A stretch of 64,000 nucleotides of DNA from Candidatus Latescibacterota bacterium (GTDB taxonomy: Bacteria > Latescibacterota > UBA2968 > UBA8231), in contig CBDETK010000008.1 in the NCBI GenBank assembly GCA_965242865.1, positions 64,001-128,000 on the forward strand. Reading direction: 5' to 3'. The translations under genes and the position numbers were made by a program. This document shows, in pieces, positions 7,768-56,771 of this stretch (the first letter of the stretch is position 1; every line of letters begins with the position of its first letter). The notes under the pieces are model-generated. The model did not search any database. It was not told where the DNA came from and saw nothing but the letters and a program-made list of their open reading frames with translations.

Positions 7768-7787
7768 GAGACCGCTCAAGCGGTCTC
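7768..7787. terminator. Hairpin between convergent genes (possible bidirectional terminator)
   Basis: GAGACCGC-TCAA-GCGGTCTC perfect 8-bp stem overlapping the queG stop; no long U-tract. Confidence 0.5.
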
Positions 7788-8912
7788 TGCGTTGCGGGCC
7801 GCGCCGGCGCTGCCGGTGCGCGGCGGGGATGCCCCCAACTGTTGCAACGCCCAGCGGGCGTGTTCGCGGACGACGGCGTCCGGATATTCCGCGAGTCGCG
7901 CGAGCGCCTCGCGAAACGCGGGGTTGCCGCTGTTGCCCATGGCCACGGCGACGTTGCGCAGGAACCCCGCGTAGCGGCTTCTCTCGACCGGCGTGCCCCC
8001 GAACCGGCGGTCGAACTCTTCTTCGGAAAGGCCCGCCAATTCGGCTAGATCCGGTCGCTCGTTGATCGCTTGGTAGGCAGGTTCCGCGGTCACGGCCGCC
8101 CGGCGATGGTTGTTCCACGGGCAGACGTCCTGGCAGATGTCGCATCCGAAGACATGGTGGCCGACCCCCTCGCGATGCCCTTCGGGGATGGAGCCGCGCA
8201 ACTCCACGGTCCAGTAGGCGATGCACAGCCGCGAGTCCAGCGCGTGGGACGGCCCGCTCGCGCTGTCGAGTTCGACGAACGCATCGGTCGGGCAGGCGTC
8301 GATGCATCTCCGGCACGTGCCGCACCGGAAGGCCGCCTCCTCGTCCCGCGCGAATTCCACCGAGGTGAGGATCTCGCCGAGGAAGAACCAAGACCCCGTC
8401 CGTTCCTCGATCAGGCACGAGTTCTTGCCGATCCAGCCCAGCCCGGCCCTGCGGGCGTAGGCGCGCTCCAGCAACGGCGAGGTGTCCACGCAGACCTTGT
8501 TCTTCACACCGGGTCCGAAGCGCATCTGGATCCAGTCCGCGAGCGCGCGCAAGCGGGCCTTAATCGTGTCGTGGTAATCGGCGCCCCAGGCGTAGCGCGA
8601 GATCCAACCCCGGCGGTCGGACGCGAATTCCGTGGAGTACGGCGCCGAGGCGTTGTAGACCGACCCGACGCAGACCACGGAGCGAGCCGACGGCAGCAAG
8701 GCGCGCGGGTCGGAGCGCAGCTCTCCGCGGCGTCCGGCCAGATAGCCCATGTCGCCGTGGTACCCGCGCTCCAGCCACTCGGCGTAGAACAGGGATTCGA
8801 GTGTCGGCTCCGGGGATGCCACGCCCGCCAGTTCGAATCCGAGTTCGCGGGCGCGAGCCTTGAGCGGGGCGCTGTCCTGCACGGTGCCGTCCGTGGAGCG
8901 GCGCGGCCGCAT
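7776..8912 (-). CDS. queG: tRNA epoxyqueuosine(34) reductase QueG (start 8912 or GTG 8882)
   Basis: ISRYAWGADYH, CVDTSPLLER, GLGWIGKN, CGTCRRCIDACPT and FGCDICQDVCPWN motifs. Confidence 0.95.
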   Translation of the reverse strand: MRPRRSTDGTVQDSAPLKARARELGFELAGVASPEPTLESLFYAEWLERGYHGDMGYLAGRRGELRSDPRALLPSARSVVCVGSVYNASAPYSTEFASDRRGWISRYAWGADYHDTIKARLRALADWIQMRFGPGVKNKVCVDTSPLLERAYARRAGLGWIGKNSCLIEERTGSWFFLGEILTSVEFARDEEAAFRCGTCRRCIDACPTDAFVELDSASGPSHALDSRLCIAYWTVELRGSIPEGHREGVGHHVFGCDICQDVCPWNNHRRAAVTAEPAYQAINERPDLAELAGLSEEEFDRRFGGTPVERSRYAGFLRNVAVAMGNSGNPAFREALARLAEYPDAVVREHARWALQQLGASPPRTGSAGAARNAETA

Positions 8913-9140
8913 CCCGCTCCCGAGTGACGCGAAACAGCCGTTCAGCCCCTCTATGCTGCCATAGAACCGCGAATTTCTGCGATTCGCCGATATTCCGTTG
9001 CGCGGCCGGGCGGCGAGGTCATATTCTTGCGTATGGCTGGCAGGAGTGCCTCCACGCGGGTGCGGATGCCGGCCGATCGCGATCGGGAGCCCCCTCGGGA
9101 GCGCGCTCGGCGCGAGTGGAATCTCGAGGAGGGAACACGC

Positions 9141-11243
<2,103 letters not shown>

Positions 11244-20026: not shown

Positions 20027-21334
20027 TCAGGCGTGAGCGAGCCGCTCGAGGACCGAGCCGGAGCGGACGATAGTGTGCTCGCGTCCCGGCCCGGTCGAGA
20101 CGCCCCCGATCTCCACCTCGATGCGGTCTTCCAAGAACGTTAGGTAGTCCCGCGCGACCTGCGGGAGATCGTCGTATGCCTCGATGCCCGATGTCGAACT
20201 CCGCCAGCCAGGAAGTTCCTCGTAGACCGGTTCCACCGCTGCGTAATCCTCGGCGATCGCCGGCATCCAGTCCAGCGTCGCGCCCTTGTAGCGATATCCC
20301 GTGCAAACCGGGATCCTGTCCAAGTAGTCCAGTACGTCCAGCTTGGTGAGGAACAGCGTTGAAAGGTGATTGATCGAGTGGGCGTACCGCAGCAGCGGGA
20401 TGTCGAACCACCCGCAGCGCCTCGGGCGTCCGGTCACCGTGCCGTATTCCTTGCCGACTTCCCGCAGCTTGTCCGCTTCGGGTCCGAACAGTTCCGTCAC
20501 GAACGGCCCTTCCCCCACGCGCGTCGCGTAAGCCTTCGCCACGCCCGCGATCTCGTGCAGCAGTCGCGGCGAGACCCCGGATCCCGTGCAGAGCCCTCCC
20601 GCTGTCGCATTCGACGACGTGACGTATGGGTAGGTGCCGAAGTCAATGTCCAGCATCGTGGCTTGGGCACCCTCGAACAGCAGTCGCTTGCCCTGCTTCG
20701 TGGCGTCGTTGAGGTACTTGCCGGTGTCCGTCACGAACGGGCGCAAGCGGTCGGCGAAGTCTTGGTAGCGCTTCAGAGCGGCATCGACATCCCAAGGTTC
20801 TCCGATACCCGAGGCGTCCGCTAGCACACCCTTCTCCGTCGCGAGTGCGCGGAATCGGTCGGCGAATAGATCCATCGACAGCAGCTCGGCAACGCGAATC
20901 CCGCGTCTGCCGACCTTGTCTTCGTAGCAAGGGCCGATCCCGCGCGAAGTGGTGCCAATCTTGCGCTTGCCCGGCGTGGCCTCCGTCGACCGTTCCATCA
21001 CCGGGTGGTACGGCGAGACCACATGCGCTCTGTTGCTGATGATCAGGTTGCGCTCGACCTCGACTCCAAGGTCACGCAGAGTCTCGATTTCATTGAGGAG
21101 GGCCTCCGGATCGATCACAACCCCGTTTCCGACAACCGCCACCTTGCCGGGGCGGAGGATGCCGCTAGGCACTAGGGAGAGCTTGTATACCTGATCGCCA
21201 ACTTGAACGGTGTGGCCAGCGTTGTTGCCGCCTTGGCAGCGCACGACGATGTCGAAGTGCTCCGCGACCAGATCGATCAGCTTGCCCTTGCCCTCATCCC
21301 CCCACTGCAGACCCAAGACGGCAAGGTTAGGCAT
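20027..21334 (-). CDS. purA: Adenylosuccinate synthetase
   Basis: QWGDEGKGK, GGNNAGHT, GIGPCYEDK and TGRPRRCGWFD motifs. Confidence 0.98.
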   Translation of the reverse strand: MPNLAVLGLQWGDEGKGKLIDLVAEHFDIVVRCQGGNNAGHTVQVGDQVYKLSLVPSGILRPGKVAVVGNGVVIDPEALLNEIETLRDLGVEVERNLIISNRAHVVSPYHPVMERSTEATPGKRKIGTTSRGIGPCYEDKVGRRGIRVAELLSMDLFADRFRALATEKGVLADASGIGEPWDVDAALKRYQDFADRLRPFVTDTGKYLNDATKQGKRLLFEGAQATMLDIDFGTYPYVTSSNATAGGLCTGSGVSPRLLHEIAGVAKAYATRVGEGPFVTELFGPEADKLREVGKEYGTVTGRPRRCGWFDIPLLRYAHSINHLSTLFLTKLDVLDYLDRIPVCTGYRYKGATLDWMPAIAEDYAAVEPVYEELPGWRSSTSGIEAYDDLPQVARDYLTFLEDRIEVEIGGVSTGPGREHTIVRSGSVLERLAHA

Positions 21335-43543: not shown

Positions 43544-45322
43544 CTACGGCGCTGTTCCCTGGCCCTCTTCCAGCAGCACTTGCCGATTGACCTTGAACGG
43601 ACCGAAGCTCTCGACCAGTCCGCTGGGCCAGCGGGCTTCCACACGGCGGATTTCTTCCGCGCTCCCCACTCCGAAATGCAGCCGCATGTCGTTGTGCGAC
43701 ATGTAGCTGCCGCCGCTGCGCACCTCGTCCGCTTGGCGCATATCTCCGGACTCGACCACGACCCGCGCCCCAATGCCGTTGCGGTTCGACTGCGTCCCCT
43801 GCACGGCGATGCGGATCCAGTTCCCGCCCGCGCCTTCGTTTCGCAGCAGGTTCGGGCGGCCATCCAGATTGTTCACGACCACTTCCACGGATCCGTCATT
43901 GTCCAGGTCGCCGAATGCCGCGCCCCGCGCCGCTGTCCTTTCGACGATACCCGGGCCCGCCTGCGCGGACATATCGATGAACGCTCCGTTGCGAATGTTC
44001 CAATACACCAATCGCGGCTGCCGGTACCGGCTGGCCGACTCCAGCGTGTCGATCGTGGGGTATACGTGACCGTTGACGATGAACACGTCCTTCCAGCCGT
44101 CGCGATCCATGTCGATGAAGCCGACGCCCCAGCCCACGGAATTGGTGTCGACCCCGAGCCCCGCGCGGTAAGAGACCTCCGTGAAGAATCCCCGGCCCTC
44201 GTTGCGGTATAGCGAGGGCACGTCGTCGGAGAAGTTCGTCTTGACGATATCCACGCGACCGTCATGGTTGAAATCCGCCGCTGCCACGCCCATGCCCGCC
44301 TGCTCCTTGCCGTTCTCGTTCAGCGCCGTGCCCGACAGCAAGCCCACATCCTCGAACGTCCCGTCGCGCTGGTTGTGGAAGAGCATGCTGGGCGTCGAGT
44401 CGGCCGCGATATAGATGTCCGTCCAGCCGTCATCGTCGAAGTCCAGCGTGAGCACGCCCAAGGCGTAGCGGTCGGTAGCGTGCGCAATACCGCTAGGCAC
44501 CGAGACATCCTCGAAGCGTCCCTCTCCCGTGTTGCGCCAGAGACGGCTAGTCTCGGGCGGCAAGCCGCGGGGTCCGCACAGAACCGCGAGGCCCTTGAAT
44601 CGGCAGAAGTTGCTCTCGCCGGGAGTCGGGGTCGTGTCCAGATCGAGAGCGACGTAATGCGCGACGACCATGTCCAGCCAGCCGTCGCGGTCGTAATCGA
44701 GAAACGCGCAGCCGGTTCCCCAACGCTGTCCGGCCGTCGGAAGCCCCGTCGCTTCCGTGACGTCGGCGAACCGACGTCCCTCGAGGTTGCGGTACAGCCG
44801 GTGCGGGCCGTATTGAGTGACCAGCAGGTCGTCGAAGCCATCGTTGTCGTAATCGCCGACGCAGACGCCCTGTCCCCAGCCGCTTCGGTCTAGTCCGACA
44901 GTCTCGGTGACATCCTCGAAGCGCAGGTCGCCTAAATTGCGGAACAAGCGGCTGGTGGGCACTGCCTGCGTCTCGTCCGCGTCCCAGCGCCGCCCGTTGA
45001 CGAAGAACACGTCTGCGAGACCGTCCCGGTCGTAATCGAAGATGGCCGCGCCGCCGCCCGTCGTCTCGAGGATGTAGCGCTTCTCCATCGGATCCCCGAG
45101 CACGTGGCGAAAGTCCAAGCCGGCCTCCGCGGCGACATCCTCGAAGTGAATTCGGGGCGGAGGCAGATCCGTTTTCGCGAGCGGAGAGCCCCGTGCGGTG
45201 CGTCCGGCTACGGCTACCCCTTGGGCCGTCAGGGCGACTGGCAGCGCCAAGCTCATGGCGGCGAGCACGGCCACTTGGCTGGGGAGCGACACGCCGACCA
45301 TTGCGCGTGGGCATTCTCGCAT
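43544..45322 (-). CDS. CRTAC1 family protein (FG-GAP repeats + ASPIC/UnbV); start uncertain
   Basis: DYDRDG/DYDNDG repeats; C-terminal SNRNGIGARV...SGGSYMSHNDMRLHFG...WPSG. Confidence 0.9.
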   Translation of the reverse strand: MRECPRAMVGVSLPSQVAVLAAMSLALPVALTAQGVAVAGRTARGSPLAKTDLPPPRIHFEDVAAEAGLDFRHVLGDPMEKRYILETTGGGAAIFDYDRDGLADVFFVNGRRWDADETQAVPTSRLFRNLGDLRFEDVTETVGLDRSGWGQGVCVGDYDNDGFDDLLVTQYGPHRLYRNLEGRRFADVTEATGLPTAGQRWGTGCAFLDYDRDGWLDMVVAHYVALDLDTTPTPGESNFCRFKGLAVLCGPRGLPPETSRLWRNTGEGRFEDVSVPSGIAHATDRYALGVLTLDFDDDGWTDIYIAADSTPSMLFHNQRDGTFEDVGLLSGTALNENGKEQAGMGVAAADFNHDGRVDIVKTNFSDDVPSLYRNEGRGFFTEVSYRAGLGVDTNSVGWGVGFIDMDRDGWKDVFIVNGHVYPTIDTLESASRYRQPRLVYWNIRNGAFIDMSAQAGPGIVERTAARGAAFGDLDNDGSVEVVVNNLDGRPNLLRNEGAGGNWIRIAVQGTQSNRNGIGARVVVESGDMRQADEVRSGGSYMSHNDMRLHFGVGSAEEIRRVEARWPSGLVESFGPFKVNRQVLLEEGQGTAP

Positions 45323-45418
45323 AGCCGCTCCAGTTCGTACGAGGCCAGCCCGCATCGCGAGTGGCGACCTACCTTGGCGGCATTGCACTTGTGGCGGCGG
45401 GCGGATAGCCTATGGGCC

Positions 45419-47044
45419 ATGCGGGGCGGTCCATGCATTGCGCTCGCTTGGGCGATCTGCGCTGTCGCGACCATGCCAGCGCTGTCCGCCGAAGCGGACG
45501 CCTGCGGGCAGTGCCATCCGCAGGAGGTTGCCGGATACCTCGAGACTGGCATGGGCCGCTCCATCGCACGTCACGCCGAGCAACCGCCCGGCGCGTTCGA
45601 GCATGCGGTCTCGGGATCCTCCTTCGATGTCGCGCGCTCGGACGCCGGCATGATCCAGCGGATCGAGCGCGACGGTCTCACCGCCGCCTATCCGGTCGAG
45701 TACGTGATCGGCTCCGGGAACGCAGCATTCGGGTACCTGATCCGGGTCGACCAAGCGGTTTACCAATCTCCGATCGCCTACTACGCCAAGCGGTCTCGCT
45801 GGGGCATGGCTCCCGGGTACGAGGAGCATCCGGCACCCGACTTTGATCGGCCCGTCCTGCCCGAATGCCTCTGGTGCCATGTCGATCAGCCGCAAGCCGT
45901 GCCGCTGAGCCAGAACAGCTACGCGGGAGCGGACCTCGGGCTAGAGCCGATTTCTTGTGCGCGCTGCCACGGCGACGGTGCTGCCCACCTTGCCAAGCCG
46001 TCCGCCGAAACCATTGTCAATCCCGCCAAGCTGCAGCCGGTCGAACGTGACAGCGTGTGCGAGCAGTGCCACCTCAGCGGCGAGCTCAGGGTGCTCAATA
46101 CCGGCAAGACCTTCGGTGACTTCCGGCCCGGCATGCGTCTGGAGGATGTCTTCTCGGTCTATGTCGGCGATTTCGGCGACAACTCCCCGGGGCGGTTCAA
46201 GGTTGTCAGCCACGTGGAGCAGCTGCAGCTCAGCGCCTGCTACCGCCAATCGAACGGTTCCATGTGGTGCGGGACCTGCCACAACCCTCACGAGAAACCG
46301 ACGGAGCCTGTGTCTTACTACAGATCCCGATGCCTGGATTGCCACGAGGGGACGCTGCCCGCCGGACATGTCGAGCCCGCCGCCGATTGCGTCTCCTGCC
46401 ATATGGCTCGCCGTGCATCGCACGACAGCGGCCATAGCGCGTTCACGGACCACCTCATCGCCGCGCGGCCGAGCGCCGGGGAGGATCCCCAGCGACCAGC
46501 GCAACGCATCCGAGCGTGGCGGGAATCAAGAGACGCGGAACTCGCCCAGCGGAATCTCGGGATGGCCTATATCGATCTCGGTCGTCGGCGAGAGCGGACG
46601 GAACTCTTGGACGAGGGAGCTTCCCTGCTGGCCCGGCTCGCGCAAGCCGGATCCTTGGACTCCGCCGGGCTAGCGGAGCTGGGCGGGGTGCTGATCGCGA
46701 AGGAAGCGCCGCCGGAAGCGGGCTTCAAGCCGCTCGCCGTGCAATTGCTGCGCGATGCGTTGGAACTGGCACCCGCGCATCCCGCGCGCCACCGCGCACT
46801 CGCGGCGGCGCTCTGGGATACGGGTGACCGCGAGCAGTCGATTGAACTTCTCGAGCGGGCGATCCGGCTCGATCCGCAAGTCAAGGCGGCGTATCAGGTG
46901 CTCGCTCGCATCTACCGGGAGTCCGGCGAACCCGATGCCGCCGCCGCGATCTGGAACCGGTACCTCGATCTGGTTCCGCAGAGTCTCGCGGCCCGGCGCG
47001 AGCGACGGACCCTGCAGCGGCCCCTTTCGCTCGACGGCTTGTAG
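45419..47044 (+). CDS. Heptaheme cytochrome c fused to TPR domain
   Basis: Signal peptide; seven CxxCH motifs (CGQCH, CLWCH, CARCH, CEQCH, CGTCH, CLDCH, CVSCH); C-terminal TPRs. Confidence 0.88.
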   Translation: MRGGPCIALAWAICAVATMPALSAEADACGQCHPQEVAGYLETGMGRSIARHAEQPPGAFEHAVSGSSFDVARSDAGMIQRIERDGLTAAYPVEYVIGSGNAAFGYLIRVDQAVYQSPIAYYAKRSRWGMAPGYEEHPAPDFDRPVLPECLWCHVDQPQAVPLSQNSYAGADLGLEPISCARCHGDGAAHLAKPSAETIVNPAKLQPVERDSVCEQCHLSGELRVLNTGKTFGDFRPGMRLEDVFSVYVGDFGDNSPGRFKVVSHVEQLQLSACYRQSNGSMWCGTCHNPHEKPTEPVSYYRSRCLDCHEGTLPAGHVEPAADCVSCHMARRASHDSGHSAFTDHLIAARPSAGEDPQRPAQRIRAWRESRDAELAQRNLGMAYIDLGRRRERTELLDEGASLLARLAQAGSLDSAGLAELGGVLIAKEAPPEAGFKPLAVQLLRDALELAPAHPARHRALAAALWDTGDREQSIELLERAIRLDPQVKAAYQVLARIYRESGEPDAAAAIWNRYLDLVPQSLAARRERRTLQRPLSLDGL

Positions 47045-50604: not shown

Positions 50605-50946
50605 GATCTTCGCCCGGGCGGCGATTGTCGCTGCCCGGCTTCTCAGTGCCCGAGGCTGGTTCCGCAAGCGAGTTGGTGCGGATTGCGGTGATAGTCGGGG
50701 ATTAGCGGATTCCTCGCCAGTGCCTCCGGCTTCCGGCTACACGCTCACCGTCGGAGCAGGTCCTGACCCCGGTGGCAGGGCGGTTACTCGCACACACCGA
50801 AAGACAGGACCAGCGCAACGCATCTCAGCGCATCTTCAAGTCCACCTCGAAAGACTCGTTCTCGTGATGTCCACCCCTATCATCGTCTTGAGTTGACAGC
50901 TCTTGCCTGCGTGTTTTATTCTATAGCAAGAGTGGGCGAGGGAAGT

Positions 50947-51441
50947 GTGCCGGTTCCATATGACTCCAAGGCTGTGGCAAACTATTTCTTGAGTCAAGAG
51001 CACTTGACTCAGATGAAGTTGCACAAGTTGATCTACTACGCACATGGTTGGCACCTAGCCCTTAGAGACGAGCCGCTGATGGACGAGTTCGTCGAGGCTT
51101 CGACGTACGGCCCCTTGATACCGACAGTATTCCATGAGTTCAAGGATGTCGGAACGTCACCTATTTCTAGGCTCGCGACGGACTTTGATCCGCTCACGGG
51201 TCGCTGGGATCGAATTCCTGCGATCGATGCGGACGATCAAGCGACAGAGAGGCTGCTGGATCGTGTGTGGGCGGTATATAGAGTCTATTCGCTTGGTCAA
51301 TTGATCCGCATGACGCACGAACCGGGCACTCCTTGGTCGGAAACCCGCTCAGAGAATCGTGGCATCAAGAATGCCAACATTCCGAACGAGTTGATTCAAT
51401 GCTTTTTCGTCGATAAAATGAACGGAAAGGATCAGGAATAG
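50947..51441 (+). CDS. Panacea (DUF4065/SocA/GepA-like) antitoxin domain protein
   Basis: AVANYF, MKLHKLIYYAHGWHL, YGP and TH...TPW motifs; lower GC. Confidence 0.88.
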   Translation: MPVPYDSKAVANYFLSQEHLTQMKLHKLIYYAHGWHLALRDEPLMDEFVEASTYGPLIPTVFHEFKDVGTSPISRLATDFDPLTGRWDRIPAIDADDQATERLLDRVWAVYRVYSLGQLIRMTHEPGTPWSETRSENRGIKNANIPNELIQCFFVDKMNGKDQE

Positions 51442-51753
51442 TCATAAGAGATCGAGCTAGGGCAAATACGCGAGCGCGAAGATGTGCGAGATGATCTGCC
51501 GGAAGAGCAGCACAGTATTCGAATGACCAGCTAGTGTGCGGCAAGTGTGGGCTCCATGCCCATTCGCGAGCCGGAGCTGACCCTTCACGAGCCCTCGACA
51601 GAGTGCTATGCCGTGTGCGATGACGCCCCGGTGGCAGCCCCCGGGGCGATCAGCCGACGACCGAATTTCCCTAGCGACGGTCTGACCGGTCGGCCGGGTC
51701 GAATGCCCTTGCGCGATAATTGCCACGGGCCAAGACGGCTTTCGGCTGGACCG

Positions 51754-52947
51754 ATGCGGCGAACACTCAGCGCGGCGACATGCGCCTTGGCACTTTCGTC
51801 CATCCACGCCCAGTCCCCACCGGCACCTCCGTCCGATTCCGTTCAAGCGCGCTTCCAGAGCGCCCAGCAAGCACTCTCCGAGCATCGCTACGCCGAAGCC
51901 GAGACGGCTTTCGAGGAGCTGGTCGCAGCCGCCCCGAACCTTTCCGGGGCCCATGCCAATCTCGGCGTAGCCCGATACCTGCAGGGCCACTACGAAGAGG
52001 CGTCCAACGCTTTCCGCCGGGCACTCGAAATCAGTCCGTCGATGCCTAGCGTCGAACTGTACATGGGGCTGAGCCAAGCCAGGGCGGGACGAAGGGAGGA
52101 AGCCTTCCCCGCGCTGGCCCAGGGCTTTTGGAATGCGAGCGACGACGACTGGCGCCTTCAGGCGGGAATGATCCTCGCCGAGTTGCATGCCGCTCGCCAC
52201 GAAGACGAAAAGGTCCTCGATGTCGTCCGGGCCCTGAAGAAAGCCTTTCCCGGCAATCCCGATGTCCTGTACGCGGCCTATCGCCTGCACTCCGACATGG
52301 GTGCGCGGACGCTCGCTGACTTGGTCCGCGAGGCGCCCGGATCCGCGCGTTTGCACCAAGTTACGGCGGAATTGCTGGTTAGCGAGGGAGACTACCCGCG
52401 CGCGGTGCGGCAGTACCGCGAAGCGCTCAAGGTCGCGCCGCAATTGGGCGGATTGCATCGGGCTCTCGCGGTAGCCATCATGAACAGCAATCCAGATGAG
52501 GACGGCATCCGCGAAGCAGAGCAGGCACTCGAGCGCGAACTCGCTCTGAATCCGCGCGATGTCGAATCACTGTTCCAGTTGGGAGAGATCGCGTGGCGAC
52601 GCGGCGACGAGGAGTCGGCCTTGCGACGCTACGAAGAGGTGCTCGAAGTGCAACCCACGTTCGTGGAGGGGCTGGTCGGGCTGGCCAAGGCGCTGATCGC
52701 TCGAGGCGAGTTCGGCCGTGCCGCCGAGCGTTTGGAATCCGCCGTCGGAATCGACTCCGAGCATGAAGTCGCCCGTTACCGCCTCGCACAAGCGTACCGA
52801 CAGCTCGGCCGGCCAGAGGAAGCGGCCAAGGAGCTAGAGGAATTCCGGCGTATTCGCAGCGCTTCCGAGGCATTGAGCGCGATCTACCGCCAAGTCCAGC
52901 GCAGCACGGCCCCGAGCGACGACAGCGCTGCGGCGAGTTCTCAATGA
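51754..52947 (+). CDS. Secreted TPR protein
   Basis: Signal peptide MRRTLSAATCALALS; multiple TPR repeats. Confidence 0.88.
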   Translation: MRRTLSAATCALALSSIHAQSPPAPPSDSVQARFQSAQQALSEHRYAEAETAFEELVAAAPNLSGAHANLGVARYLQGHYEEASNAFRRALEISPSMPSVELYMGLSQARAGRREEAFPALAQGFWNASDDDWRLQAGMILAELHAARHEDEKVLDVVRALKKAFPGNPDVLYAAYRLHSDMGARTLADLVREAPGSARLHQVTAELLVSEGDYPRAVRQYREALKVAPQLGGLHRALAVAIMNSNPDEDGIREAEQALERELALNPRDVESLFQLGEIAWRRGDEESALRRYEEVLEVQPTFVEGLVGLAKALIARGEFGRAAERLESAVGIDSEHEVARYRLAQAYRQLGRPEEAAKELEEFRRIRSASEALSAIYRQVQRSTAPSDDSAAASSQ

Positions 52948-55900
52948 GCGCTGCCCGTCTCCGAAGGTTACCTGCACGTCCTGTCGGCAAGAAGTCAATG
53001 GCAAGACACTCGAGACGGCTCGACCGACACACGATCCGCCGGGCCGCAATCCTGTTGGTTTGCGCACTTCTCGGCTTGCTCGCTGTCGCTGAGGAGTCGC
53101 CGGATCCATCCTTCCACCTGCCCGGCGAATGGGGCGGTCCCGCTGGAGGCGATTTGGCCCGCATGGTGGATCCGTCCAACGACTCGTACGCCACCGAAGT
53201 CTACGCCGAAGAAATCGCTGCGGAACTGCATGCTCTCGCTGATCAGCTGCTCGTAGATCCGACCGACGGCGAGGCCGTCCGTAGTTTGCTGGATCCGGTC
53301 TTTCGGGGCGCTCCGCTTGAAGGGCCTGACGAATCGAAGCGACAGGGAGGACTCGCAGTGTTCGAAAGCTCCCCGACCAAGGAGACGATTCTGAACGCGG
53401 ATCAGTTCGCGGCCGCTTTCTCCGGGTTAGTTGGCCGCCACGGCCAACTCGAGAGTGCCGAGTTCCACGTCACCGGTCTGGCGGAGCGTACCGCGCGAGG
53501 GGAAACCGAAGTTGAATCGGTCGTCCATTACGCGTTGTTCGGTCCGACCGGCGATGGCAATGGATCCGTCCAGCAGACGGGCGAGTGGATCTTGACTTGG
53601 ACTCGTCGCGCATCGGGTTGGAGCGTGCGGACATGGCAGACGAGCAAGCACAGCCGCGTCGAGGCTGTCCGTCCGCTCTTCACCGACGTGACCGAGCAGT
53701 CTCTGGGATCCAACGAATCCTACTGGAAGCAGCTGACCTTGGGCGTCGATCATTGGCGGGCCGCCCTTGATGGCGCGATCGGCATCGATGTCTACGGACA
53801 CCACGGCGTCAGCCTCGGGGACATTGATGGCGATGGAGATGACGACCTCTACGTAAGCCAGCCGTCCGGCCTCCCGAATCGGCTCTATCGCAACAATGGC
53901 GGATTGGTCTTCACCGACATCACCCGAGCATCGAGCGCGGGGGTGCTGGACAGCACTTCCATGGCCCTGTTCGCCGACATTGACAATGACGGCGATCAGG
54001 ATCTGACGCTGATCACCGCGCGAGCCCCGATCCTCCTACGCAACGACGGCACGGGTTCGTTACAGCACGATCGGGACGCGTTCAGCTTCTCGGTCTCGCC
54101 GCGTGGTCAGCTCACGTCGGCCGCAATGGCCGACTACGACCGCGACGGCGATCTCGACTTGTACGTCTGCTCCTATCGATTCCACGCCGGGGCCGGGGAT
54201 CACCGTCCGCCCCAGCCGTATCACGACGCCAACAACGGGCCCCCGAACTTCTTCCTCCGCAACCGAGGGGACGGCACATTCGAGGAGGTCACCGCGGCGA
54301 GCGGCCTCAATGCGAACAACACGCGCTTCAGCTTCGCCGCCGCTTGGGCCGACTACGACGCTGACGGCTGGCCCGACCTTTACGTCGCGAACGACTTCGG
54401 TCGCAACAACCTCTACCGCAATCGCGGCGATGGCACGTTCTCCGATGTTGCGGAACTCGCAGGCGTGGAAGATGTCGCCGCGGGCATGAGCGTCGCGTGG
54501 CTGGACCACGATTTGGACGGCAACCGAGACCTGTATGTCGGAAACATGTGGTCGTCAGCAGGCCTCCGCATCAGCGACAAGGCAGAATTCCGGGCGGGTT
54601 CCGCCACGGAAGCACTGGCCCTCTACCGGCGTCACGCGAAAGGGAACTCTCTGTTCCGGGGCCTTGGCGAGGGACGCTTCGACGAGATTTCCTCGACGGC
54701 TGGGGTGGAGCGCGGGCGCTGGGCTTGGAGCAGCGACGCTGTCGATCTCGACAATGACGGCTACGAGGAACTCTATGTCGCCAACGGGTACGTCACGAAC
54801 GCCAGCGACCGAGATCTTTGAAGTTTCTTCTGGCGGCAAGTTGTGTCGCGCTCGCCCGCCGACGAGCGGTCGGCATCGGACTACGAATCCGCGTGGAGAT
54901 CGATTACCGCACTCATCGAAGCCGGGGAATCGTGGAGCGGGAACGAGCGGAACCTCTGCTACCTCAACAACCGTGACGGCACGTTTGCGGAAATCTCGGC
55001 GGTGGCCGGTCTCGACTTTCCTGACGATGGGCGTGCGTTCGCTGCAGGGGATCTGGACGGTGACGGCGATCTCGATTTGGTGCTGAAGTCGCGCAACGCA
55101 CCCGGCATCCGCATCGTGCGCAACGACTGGTCCGCGGGCAATTCGATTCGCATCAGGGTGCGCGGCGGACCGGAGCGGCGTTCCGCGGCAGGTGCGGTCG
55201 CTACGGTTCAAACCGACGGTCGCCGTATGGAGAAAACTCCGCGCATCGGTTCGGGGTTCCTGTCGCAGCACTCTCAGGAACTGCACTTCGGACTCGGATC
55301 GGCGGATGACGTCGAAGAACTGCGTGTGAGTTGGCCTTCCGGGACAGAGCGAGTCTGGAGGAACTTGGCTGCGAATCGACGCTACTCGGTAGCCGAGGAT
55401 TCGGATCGCATCGCTTCGATGGCATTCGAGACGACACCGCGAGATACCGGATCGAATGACGCGAACCGGCCGCTGCCGCCCGAACTGGCCTCGGGAACCT
55501 GGCTCGTCGAACCCCTCGCGGCACCGGATTGGGAACTCAAGGATCTCGATGGCCTCGCACGTAGCCTCTCGGATTTCCGGGGCGCTCCGCTCGCCGTGAA
55601 TGTCTGGGCCACTTGGTGCCCGCCCTGCCGCGGCGAATTGCGGGACTTCCAGCGCAACTTGGGGGAGTTCGAGCAGGCTGGAGTGCAATTGGTCGCGGTC
55701 TCGGTTGACGAACCGGGCACTGCCACTGAGGTGGCCGCATTCGCCCGGGAGGAGCGATTGGGATTCCCAGTGCTGCTTGCGGATCGCGATTTCGTCACTG
55801 CCTACAACGTCCTGAAGCGCAACATGTTCAACCTCCGGTCCGATTTGCAGATTCCCACTACCTTCCTGCTGAACCGGGAAGGATTCATCGAACGCATCTA

Positions 55901-56771
55901 TCAGGGCCGCATCGAACCGGAGCGCCTCTTACGCGACATGGAATTCCTGGATGAGCCTGCGGCAACCCGACTTGCCCGAGCCCTTCCGTTCGAAGGGCGC
56001 TTTCTCGGACCCGCGCCGATTCGAAACTACACCGCATTGGGGACGGAGCTGCTAGAAGGCGGTTTGTCTGGAGCAGCCCTGCCGTACTTCGAGGCCGCGG
56101 CCGAAAGAGTTCCGAACGACGCCATCCTTCAATTCAACCTCGGCACGGCTCTGGCCGCGCGGGGTTCGCTGGCTGCGGCGCAGTTCGCTTTCGACCGGGC
56201 CGTGCGATTGAATCCTGCCTACAGCGAGGCACGCAACAGCCTTGGAGTCGTTCTGGATCGCCTCGGGAACCAGGAAGCGGCCATCGATCAGTTTCGAGCA
56301 GCGGTCGAGGCCAGTCCATCGTACGAGAAGGCGATCGGCAACCTATCGACCGCCTATGCACGCTCCGGAAAATTGGATCTCGCCATCGCAATGCTGGAAG
56401 CGGCCATAGCCAGTGATCCGAGTGCGGTCAGATTGCTCAACCGCCTCGGTCGGCTACACGCCCGAAAAGGAGCTCTCGACGCCGCCCGGAACCGGTTCGA
56501 CCAAGCGTTGAAGACGGCACCGACGGATCCCGACACGCTCAATAATCTCGCGCTCCTCGCAGCCCAACGTGGGGAATTCGGCGAAGCGATGGCTCGGCTC
56601 CACGACCTCGTCGGTGCGCGACCCGACTTCGAACCCGCCTACCTCTCGCTCGCGCAGGTGCAGGCCGCGACGAACGATCCAGAGGGGGCCCGAGCGACGC
56701 TGGAAGCGCTTCTCGCGCGGCATCCGGGAAACGTGGAAGGGCGGAAGATGTTGGACGGGCTGGAGAACTAG
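52944..56771 (+). CDS. FG-GAP / ASPIC-UnbV / TlpA-like redoxin / TPR protein with in-frame UGA at 54819-54821 (putative selenoprotein; otherwise two ORFs, 52944-54821 and 54843-56771)
   Basis: Both ORFs share one frame: ...SDRDL-UGA-SFFWRQVVSRSP...; the propeller continues across the stop; WATWCPPC; C-terminal TPRs; ATGA overlap with the upstream gene. Confidence 0.7.
54831..54861 (+). promoter_or_regulatory. Candidate bacterial SECIS element
   Basis: Hand-folded: UGGCGG/CCGCCG lower stem after a 9-nt spacer from UGA, weak upper stem, apical UGU with G at +24. Confidence 0.45.

Follow-up and report, generated by a model that had tools for sequence, protein, structure and literature searches.

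The question raised by the locus described here is whether a large gene is translated through an in-frame stop codon and, if so, with what at the site. The locus lies on the forward strand of a 64,000-nt stretch of contig C8 (C8:64001-128000) in an assembly assigned to Candidatus Latescibacterota; this whole stretch is hereafter called the window, and all coordinates are positions within it. An open reading frame (ORF) at 52944-54821 closes with the TGA at 54819-54821, and a second ORF, at 54843-56771, begins in the same frame seven sense codons further on. Translated through, with TGA written as U, the two become a single gene (52944..56771) of 1275 residues, in which the TGA is residue 626 and the junction peptide reads ...DRDL-U-SFFWRQVV.... 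From the comparison of sequences, we consider it very probable that this TGA is a selenocysteine (Sec) codon, decoded by the ordinary route of SelB and a selenocysteine insertion sequence (SECIS), and that the product is one protein predicted to be exported. The recoding mechanism itself is textbook; the selenoprotein family is new.

The read-through product is organized as an N-terminal signal anchor, an FG-GAP propeller, a UnbV/ASPIC domain, a ResA/TlpA-like domain and tetratricopeptide repeats (TPRs). Pfam matches on the 1275 residues are to FG-GAP_3 (2.5e-46), UnbV_ASPIC (PF07593, 4.5e-18; residues 748-814, 55185..55385), AhpC-TSA (8.8e-26), Redoxin and TPR families, the last covering residues from about 1029 to 1270 (56028..56753). 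The AhpC-TSA and Redoxin matches, together with Foldseek, define a thioredoxin-fold domain at residues 859-984 (55518..55895), in which the translation shows a CPPC motif (residues 892-895, 55617-55628). Relatives with a sense codon at the site have the same architecture in 1258-1289 aa. A hydrophobic segment behind an Arg-rich N-terminus (A34-A49, 53043..53090, found by eye in the translation) is probably a signal peptide or signal anchor, and it is from this segment that export is predicted. The last propeller blades, the ASPIC domain, the AhpC-TSA/redoxin domain with its CPPC and the TPRs are all encoded 3' of the TGA, and inspection of the sequence upstream of the GTG at 54843 revealed no purine-rich, Shine-Dalgarno-like run.

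An AlphaFold2 model of residues 230-1010, computed with a 45-row alignment of the family as input (pLDDT 92.7, pTM 0.92), shows the propeller with an insert of two helices (residues 626-659, 54819..54920), the first of which begins with the candidate Sec. In segment numbering, the helices at 397-407, with Sec first, and 416-430 are inserted between the propeller strands 380-385 and 442-446. A paralogue elsewhere in the window (43544-45388, reverse strand) shows an alignment gap across the TGA-bearing stretch and does not have the two-helix insert. The propeller is followed by UnbV_ASPIC, the order that characterizes the CRTAC1/ASPIC-UnbV family, and Foldseek matches this part of the model to murine CRTAC1 (9etn_A; E 1.1e-30, TMt 0.72), with which the protein shares the FG-GAP_3 repeats and the UnbV_ASPIC domain. 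It differs from murine CRTAC1 in sequence (19% identity) and in adding the Sec-bearing insert, the ResA/TlpA-like domain and the TPRs. That domain has the thioredoxin fold and the W-C-x-P-C motif of ResA (Foldseek TMt 0.85-0.89 and 31-33% identity; for 2f9s_A, 0.89 and 32%) and also matches the TlpA structures 4txo and 1jfu; unlike ResA and TlpA, it is fused to a propeller. Its NCBIfam scores are under the cut-offs (ResA 73.6 against 170 bits, TlpA 55.4 against 230 bits), and on these comparisons it is a domain that resembles ResA/TlpA and stands outside the named equivalogs. An earlier note, made from the stretch itself, had described two same-frame ORFs split by a UGA and seven sense codons (DRDL-U-SFFWRQV), a read-through product of about 1275 residues, an upstream part deprived of the last blades and the ASPIC domain, a downstream part with no clear ribosome-binding site and a UGA placed in a loop inserted relative to the paralogue; all of this is borne out by the ORFs, the translation, the Pfam domains, the alignment and the model.

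If the TGA is a working codon, it should be sought in relatives, and six-frame searches of genomes were made with the 267 residues around the site as query. The best match in each of 24 same-genus genomes (36-44% identity) holds exactly one TGA. Across 168 genomes of the phylum, 51 gave a match at E <= 1e-22; the 71 matches in all comprise 53 with one TGA, 17 with no stop and one with a single TAA. The TGA occupies a single alignment column in 35 of 35 aligned phylum loci, within D-[TLS]-U-S-[LFS]-F-W-[RL], and four further phylum loci (L052, L150-L152) have it in the same column, bringing the checked loci to 39. A cross-phylum scan covering all prokaryotes, with one genome per species, yielded 80 loci, in 17 of which (from Verrucomicrobiota, Planctomycetota and Acidobacteriota) the site column is TGA; ten of these 17 carry D-L-U-S-F-[FY]-W-R, the motif of the window gene itself, at 44-51% identity. 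The TGA family genes have 30-50% protein identity, yet D-x-U-S-x-F-W-R is kept on either side of the codon, and no peptide of the family is better conserved than S-F-F-W-R-Q-V, encoded by the seven codons that separate the TGA from the GTG and uninterrupted in the sense forms. The UGA is therefore not unique to this assembly, a possibility that had been raised at the outset; it is kept in 39 + 17 checked loci from four phyla. The one TAA match (L149, G151:C9:38056-38829) has its TAA in the matched frame and a TGA-plus-hairpin motif whose frame differs from that of the upstream part; a frameshift or a pseudogene is likely.

The 17 no-stop matches are all in the genus and all have TGC, in the context A-Q-D-Y-C-T-T-F-W (17/17). 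They represent a Cys paralogue (L051, G000:C13:2925448-2927712, with L133-L148 in 16 genus genomes), an insert-bearing propeller of about 730 aa with a signal peptide, the motif A-Q-D-Y-C-T-T-F-W-T-H-D-I-Y and no thioredoxin domain. In a quick, unrooted IQ-TREE phylogeny that used only the propeller columns of 45 members, TGA forms stand on every major branch with the sense forms nested among them, and at least eight changes are needed between U/C and other residues. The tree fits an old Sec that has been lost repeatedly, the direction of change being one that we infer because the tree is unrooted.

The codon is followed by a SECIS-like hairpin at 54833..54849 (+), in which 54833-54838 pairs with 54844-54849 (6 bp) around the loop AGUUG (54839-54843), with its G-U at 54840-54841. 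When the U of UGA is numbered +1, the stem in the window is uninterrupted and joins +15..+20 to +26..+31, the conserved loop G-U is at +22/+23 and the hairpin starts about 10-11 nt past the TGA. The hairpin with an apical GU that had been described here does exist, but the GU had been put at +24/+25, a count that is off by two. In the subfamily of the window gene and in the largest other subfamily the element has seven pairs (+14..+20 with +26..+32) and a 5-nt loop. The paired fraction of cells is 99.2% for alignment A1, 97.5% for A2 and 92.2% for A4, and 12-73% with a slid partner; for A4, which holds 31 TGA forms, sliding the 3' partner by 1-3 columns lowers the figure to 30-71%. Among these 31 forms the pair +18/+28 is CG in 16, GU in 7, GC in 3, UA in 3, AU in 1 and another combination in 1, and its covariation score was reached in 0 of 500 shuffles, which is not a probability because the sequences are related. 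It is the sole pair changed on both sides; the others are mostly invariant, including at four-fold degenerate third positions within the stem. A third subfamily (A2, the 97.5% alignment) has an 8-bp stem with the loop GGUC and no covariation, and a fourth, composed of U-x-C forms, has its own 6-bp stem about 4 nt further downstream. Stem pairs are formed in 75 of 91 cases in 13 other-phylum TGA forms as against 25 of 49 in the seven sense/Cys relatives whose DNA was at hand, and none of the 17 Cys paralogues of the genus has the hairpin. No Rfam family matched 54300-55300 at E <= 1.

The obvious standard of comparison is fdhF of E. coli, in which, according to the passages of PMC8659212 that concern it, the upper stem-loop spans positions 15-31, begins 11 nt from the UGA and features U17, G23 and U24. 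On that description the two systems share an in-frame UGA followed by a hairpin within the coding region, with G-U at +22/+23 here and G23/U24 in fdhF; they differ in that the present element has no bulged U17, has a stem of 6-8 continuous pairs closed by a loop of 4-5 nt and is one nucleotide closer to the codon. The products are also unlike, that of fdhF being a cytoplasmic molybdoenzyme and that of the window gene a predicted exported propeller.

Sec decoding further requires its machinery, and the assembly holds tRNA-Sec (70 bits; called SeC by ARAGORN, anticodon tca), SelA, the SelB wing domain and SelD. The gene for SelD (locus L014, G000:C13:4179924-4180847, reverse strand) itself has one in-frame TGA, because of which this SelD looks Sec-containing. 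Of the genomes with TGA forms, SelA was found in 5/5 of those tested in other phyla and in 48/49 of those in the phylum itself, the lone exception being 80% complete.

There is also evidence from the partner thiols. The CxxC of the thioredoxin-fold domain is intact in 25/25 TGA rows and 2/2 Cys rows of the 45-row alignment, as against 6/18 of the others. Four TGA forms have no thioredoxin domain (L070, L079, L150 and L151), and in these a Cys lies two residues past Sec (U-x-C); L152 (G158) reads U-S-C too, but its contig ends. These loci (with L150 in G026 and L151 in G030) make up a short subfamily with the motif D-G-U-x-C-[LIV]-W. In the genus subfamily that lacks the thioredoxin domain a single Cys is conserved, 87 residues downstream.

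Against decoding as Sec stand several observations, of which the first concerns the contig. The Sec genes of the assembly are all on C13 (5.6 Mb), and the window is on C8 (154 kb), which looks foreign. The tetranucleotide distance of C8 from the C13 mean is 0.0176, whereas 150-kb chunks of C13 have a mean distance of 0.0049 and a maximum of 0.0112; C8 has a full-length purA of its own (20027-21334, reverse strand), 48% identical to the purA of C13 and 46-50% to that of the genus; and no match to the adjacent outer-membrane barrel gene turned up at E <= 1e-50 among 30 genomes of the genus. Because of these three features, and because no orthologue of the window gene within the phylum exceeds 44% identity, C8 is probably a mis-binned contig or foreign replicon that does not belong to the organism of C13. 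The best identity of its purA among 401 sampled Acidobacteriota genomes is 58%. The expectation in the earlier note that UGA would occur only together with Sec machinery is thus supported across genomes by the SelA counts, but for the window itself it carries a qualification, since the genes on C13 may not be those of its organism. SelA is, moreover, present in 4/5 genomes of the closest sense-form relatives.

The residues found at the site in sense forms also speak against Sec. When 1.84 billion representatives were searched with a profile, 36 sense-codon proteins matched it over its whole length; their residues are S 9, E 6, N 5, A 4, C 3, Q 2, D 2, R 2 and one each of M, L and I. The three Cys forms (P0138, P0082 and P0104) are joined by L073 from the cross-phylum loci; judged by these alignments, each subfamily has Cys counterparts, but they are a minority, which is unusual for a selenoprotein. 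Cys had been expected to align with the UGA, and such forms have been found, but many homologues have Ser, Glu, Asn or Ala instead. None of the refuting conditions named in the earlier note, all of which were put to the test, overturned the Sec reading. In a well-supported clade of ten genes only the window gene is a TGA form; its nine nearest mates there carry sense codons throughout (A, E, N, N, S, Q, S, G and A), with no Cys among them. At 45-53% identity, its closest relatives, which come from Acidobacteriota, show G, A, S, S and E.

The hairpin and the CxxC motif have their own weak points. Shuffled versions of the 72 nt behind the TGA are as stable as the real sequence (z 0.25; 119 of 200 shuffles fold equally well), and because the single-sequence fold is so unremarkable the weight of the hairpin rests on the comparison of genes and not on energy. 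The continuous stem has no bulged U of the fdhF type, which puts it outside a strict fdhF-type SECIS. When kinship is corrected for, seven independent pairs differ at the site, and CxxC changes the same way in about three, the opposite way in none and is unchanged in four (p = 0.25). The link between site residue and CxxC in these alignments is suggestive, and the idea that the CPPC domain could recycle Sec finds support in the motif kept in 27/27 Sec or Cys forms as against 6/18, but in only about three independent co-losses.

How do other accounts of the TGA fare beside Sec decoding? The one that survives best, although we think it quite improbable, is selenium-free read-through, in which a near-cognate tRNA (for Trp, Cys or Arg) reads the codon and the hairpin is a generic stimulator, or the codon serves as a selenium-independent attenuator. 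The many residues tolerated at the site suggest that chemistry there may not be essential, and the unremarkable energy of the hairpin would suit such a role. However, Trp occurs in 0/36 and Arg in 2/36 of the sense representatives; the TGA forms track SelA (in the 5/5 and 48/49 genomes given above); the spacing of the hairpin and its G-U loop fit an element of the SelB type; and a partner thiol, CxxC or U-x-C, is kept in the TGA forms.

A second account is that the TGA is a recent nonsense mutation or a sequencing error, and the gene a fresh pseudogene whose relatives are the sense forms. That all nine nearest clade mates have sense codons, and that the Sec machinery of the assembly lies on C13 when C8 looks like another organism, are what this account would lead one to expect; we nevertheless give it very little credence, partly on account of variation in the lineage of the window itself. 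The site is spanned by contigs from public runs that belong to four studies, and two of these runs (X6 and X7) are labelled sponge metagenomes. The X1 run may be the source of the window, and the TGA recurs in the contigs from the three further studies. That of X5 keeps it and has 0 differences across 54300-54912, and that of X6 has 6 differences, all listed, none of them at the TGA. The X7 contig has 40 differences in 1001 nt and keeps the TGA, with no listed difference within 54705-54871 and no indels listed. Of these 40, the 33 listed were analysed, a restriction that counts against the strength of the result: in the read-through frame 26 change a third codon position (binomial P(>=26/33) 1e-7), among them 11 of the 14 downstream of the TGA, and 24/33 are synonymous (14/19 upstream and 10/14 downstream). 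Because the differences are mainly third-position and synonymous on either side of the TGA, the pattern indicates purifying selection that acts on the two halves in a single frame. The window also keeps its hairpin (6 bp, with the G-U loop), where sense relatives form 3-5 of 7 pairs, and its CPPC, where CxxC is lost in 8/9 of the nearest sense relatives; and TGA forms are found on every major branch of the tree. No RNA dataset with the stretch is listed among the public runs matched.

As an observation apart, the 34-nt TGA-plus-hairpin stretch 54816-54849 alone is matched, with 3 differences, by other contigs of the X1, X5, X6 and X7 metagenomes (e.g. X7 record 29), and one contig each in X1, X5 and X6 joins 54421 to 54816. 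The contigs that match 54816-54849 are probably paralogues or homologues with a common element.

That the TGA is a true stop and the locus makes two products, a partial propeller of 625 residues and, from GTG 54843 or through re-initiation, a remainder of 642 residues, is likewise very improbable, for although an in-frame GTG does lie seven codons past the TGA and the downstream third-position bias also fits a separately translated ORF, this GTG has no ribosome-binding site ahead of it and is the second Val of a conserved V-V, inside the hairpin (the first Val, where GTG, is in the loop), the S-F-F-W-R-Q-V gap peptide is the most conserved part and continuous in the sense forms, and the break would split one propeller domain that is modelled as a single confident fold. 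Another genetic code is ruled out, as the upstream neighbour stops at TGA and other genes of the window at TAG.

If the TGA is indeed read as Sec, a scheme for the protein can be proposed. SelB and tRNA-Sec would decode 54819-54821, aided by the mRNA hairpin at 54833-54849, and the product would be one exported, CRTAC1-like protein of 1275 residues. Sec, at the N-terminus of a helix in the propeller insert, would be the redox centre and would act as a nucleophile toward an oxidant or toward a substrate on the propeller. The fused ResA/TlpA-like CPPC domain might then resolve the oxidized Sec and so regenerate it, and in relatives without the thioredoxin domain the neighbouring Cys of U-x-C could take over this role. 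ResA and TlpA receive electrons from a membrane reductase; by analogy, the CPPC domain may draw its electrons from such a source. We regard the relay from Sec to CxxC as tentative, its chances being a little short of even. More doubtful again is the larger proposal that these proteins form a new class of extracytoplasmic selenoenzyme, in which a propeller Sec on an inserted helix is recycled intramolecularly by a CxxC or a vicinal Cys. That Cys rarely replaces Sec, and that loss of Sec goes with decay of CxxC, would together mean chemistry beyond sulfur.

Immediately upstream of the read-through gene lies a gene for a TPR protein (51547..52947, +; from the ORF list and Pfam), which ends in TGA and reaches 4 nt into the start of the read-through gene; because of this overlap the two are possibly co-transcribed. 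The TPR gene is separated from the outer-membrane barrel gene by an ORF (50893-51441, +) with a SocA/Panacea antitoxin domain (5e-15). The insert-less FG-GAP/ASPIC paralogue at 43544-45388 (-) is arranged head to head, with overlapping 5' ends, with an ORF of 646 residues (45104-47044, +) that combines cytochrome c7/c3-like heme-binding regions with TPRs. Further away, an ORF of 1065 residues (7776-10973, -) has the epoxyqueuosine reductase QueG domains (DUF1730, Fer4_16) in its C-terminal third and no Pfam match at E <= 1e-8 over its first 750 or so residues.

The novelty of the family was considered against the literature and the available models. A search of the main texts that describe deep-Sep, BSepDB and, in a 2026 review, prokaryotic selenoproteomes gave no mention of it. 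ASPIC and FG-GAP are likewise absent from the main-text passages of Kim et al. 2016 (PMC4807772), which also contain no analysis of the site, the hairpin or a link to CxxC. A full-text literature search for a selenoprotein with FG-GAP, ASPIC or CRTAC1 returned nothing relevant, nor did the literature on the structure of CRTAC1 yield anything of use, and none of the NCBIfam selenoprotein models fits the propeller.

What does the finding mean for these proteins? At a practical level, gene callers cut this gene into two ORFs, one of 625 and one of 642 residues, and a like split is to be expected in dozens of genomes from at least four phyla. The scarcity of Cys at the site in sense relatives departs from the usual picture of a selenoprotein. 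A predicted exported selenoprotein, with its Sec outside the thioredoxin fold yet adjoining it, points to a redox role for a large family of bacterial CRTAC1-like proteins, and if the selenoenzyme reading is true, it would provide the first functional handle on that family.

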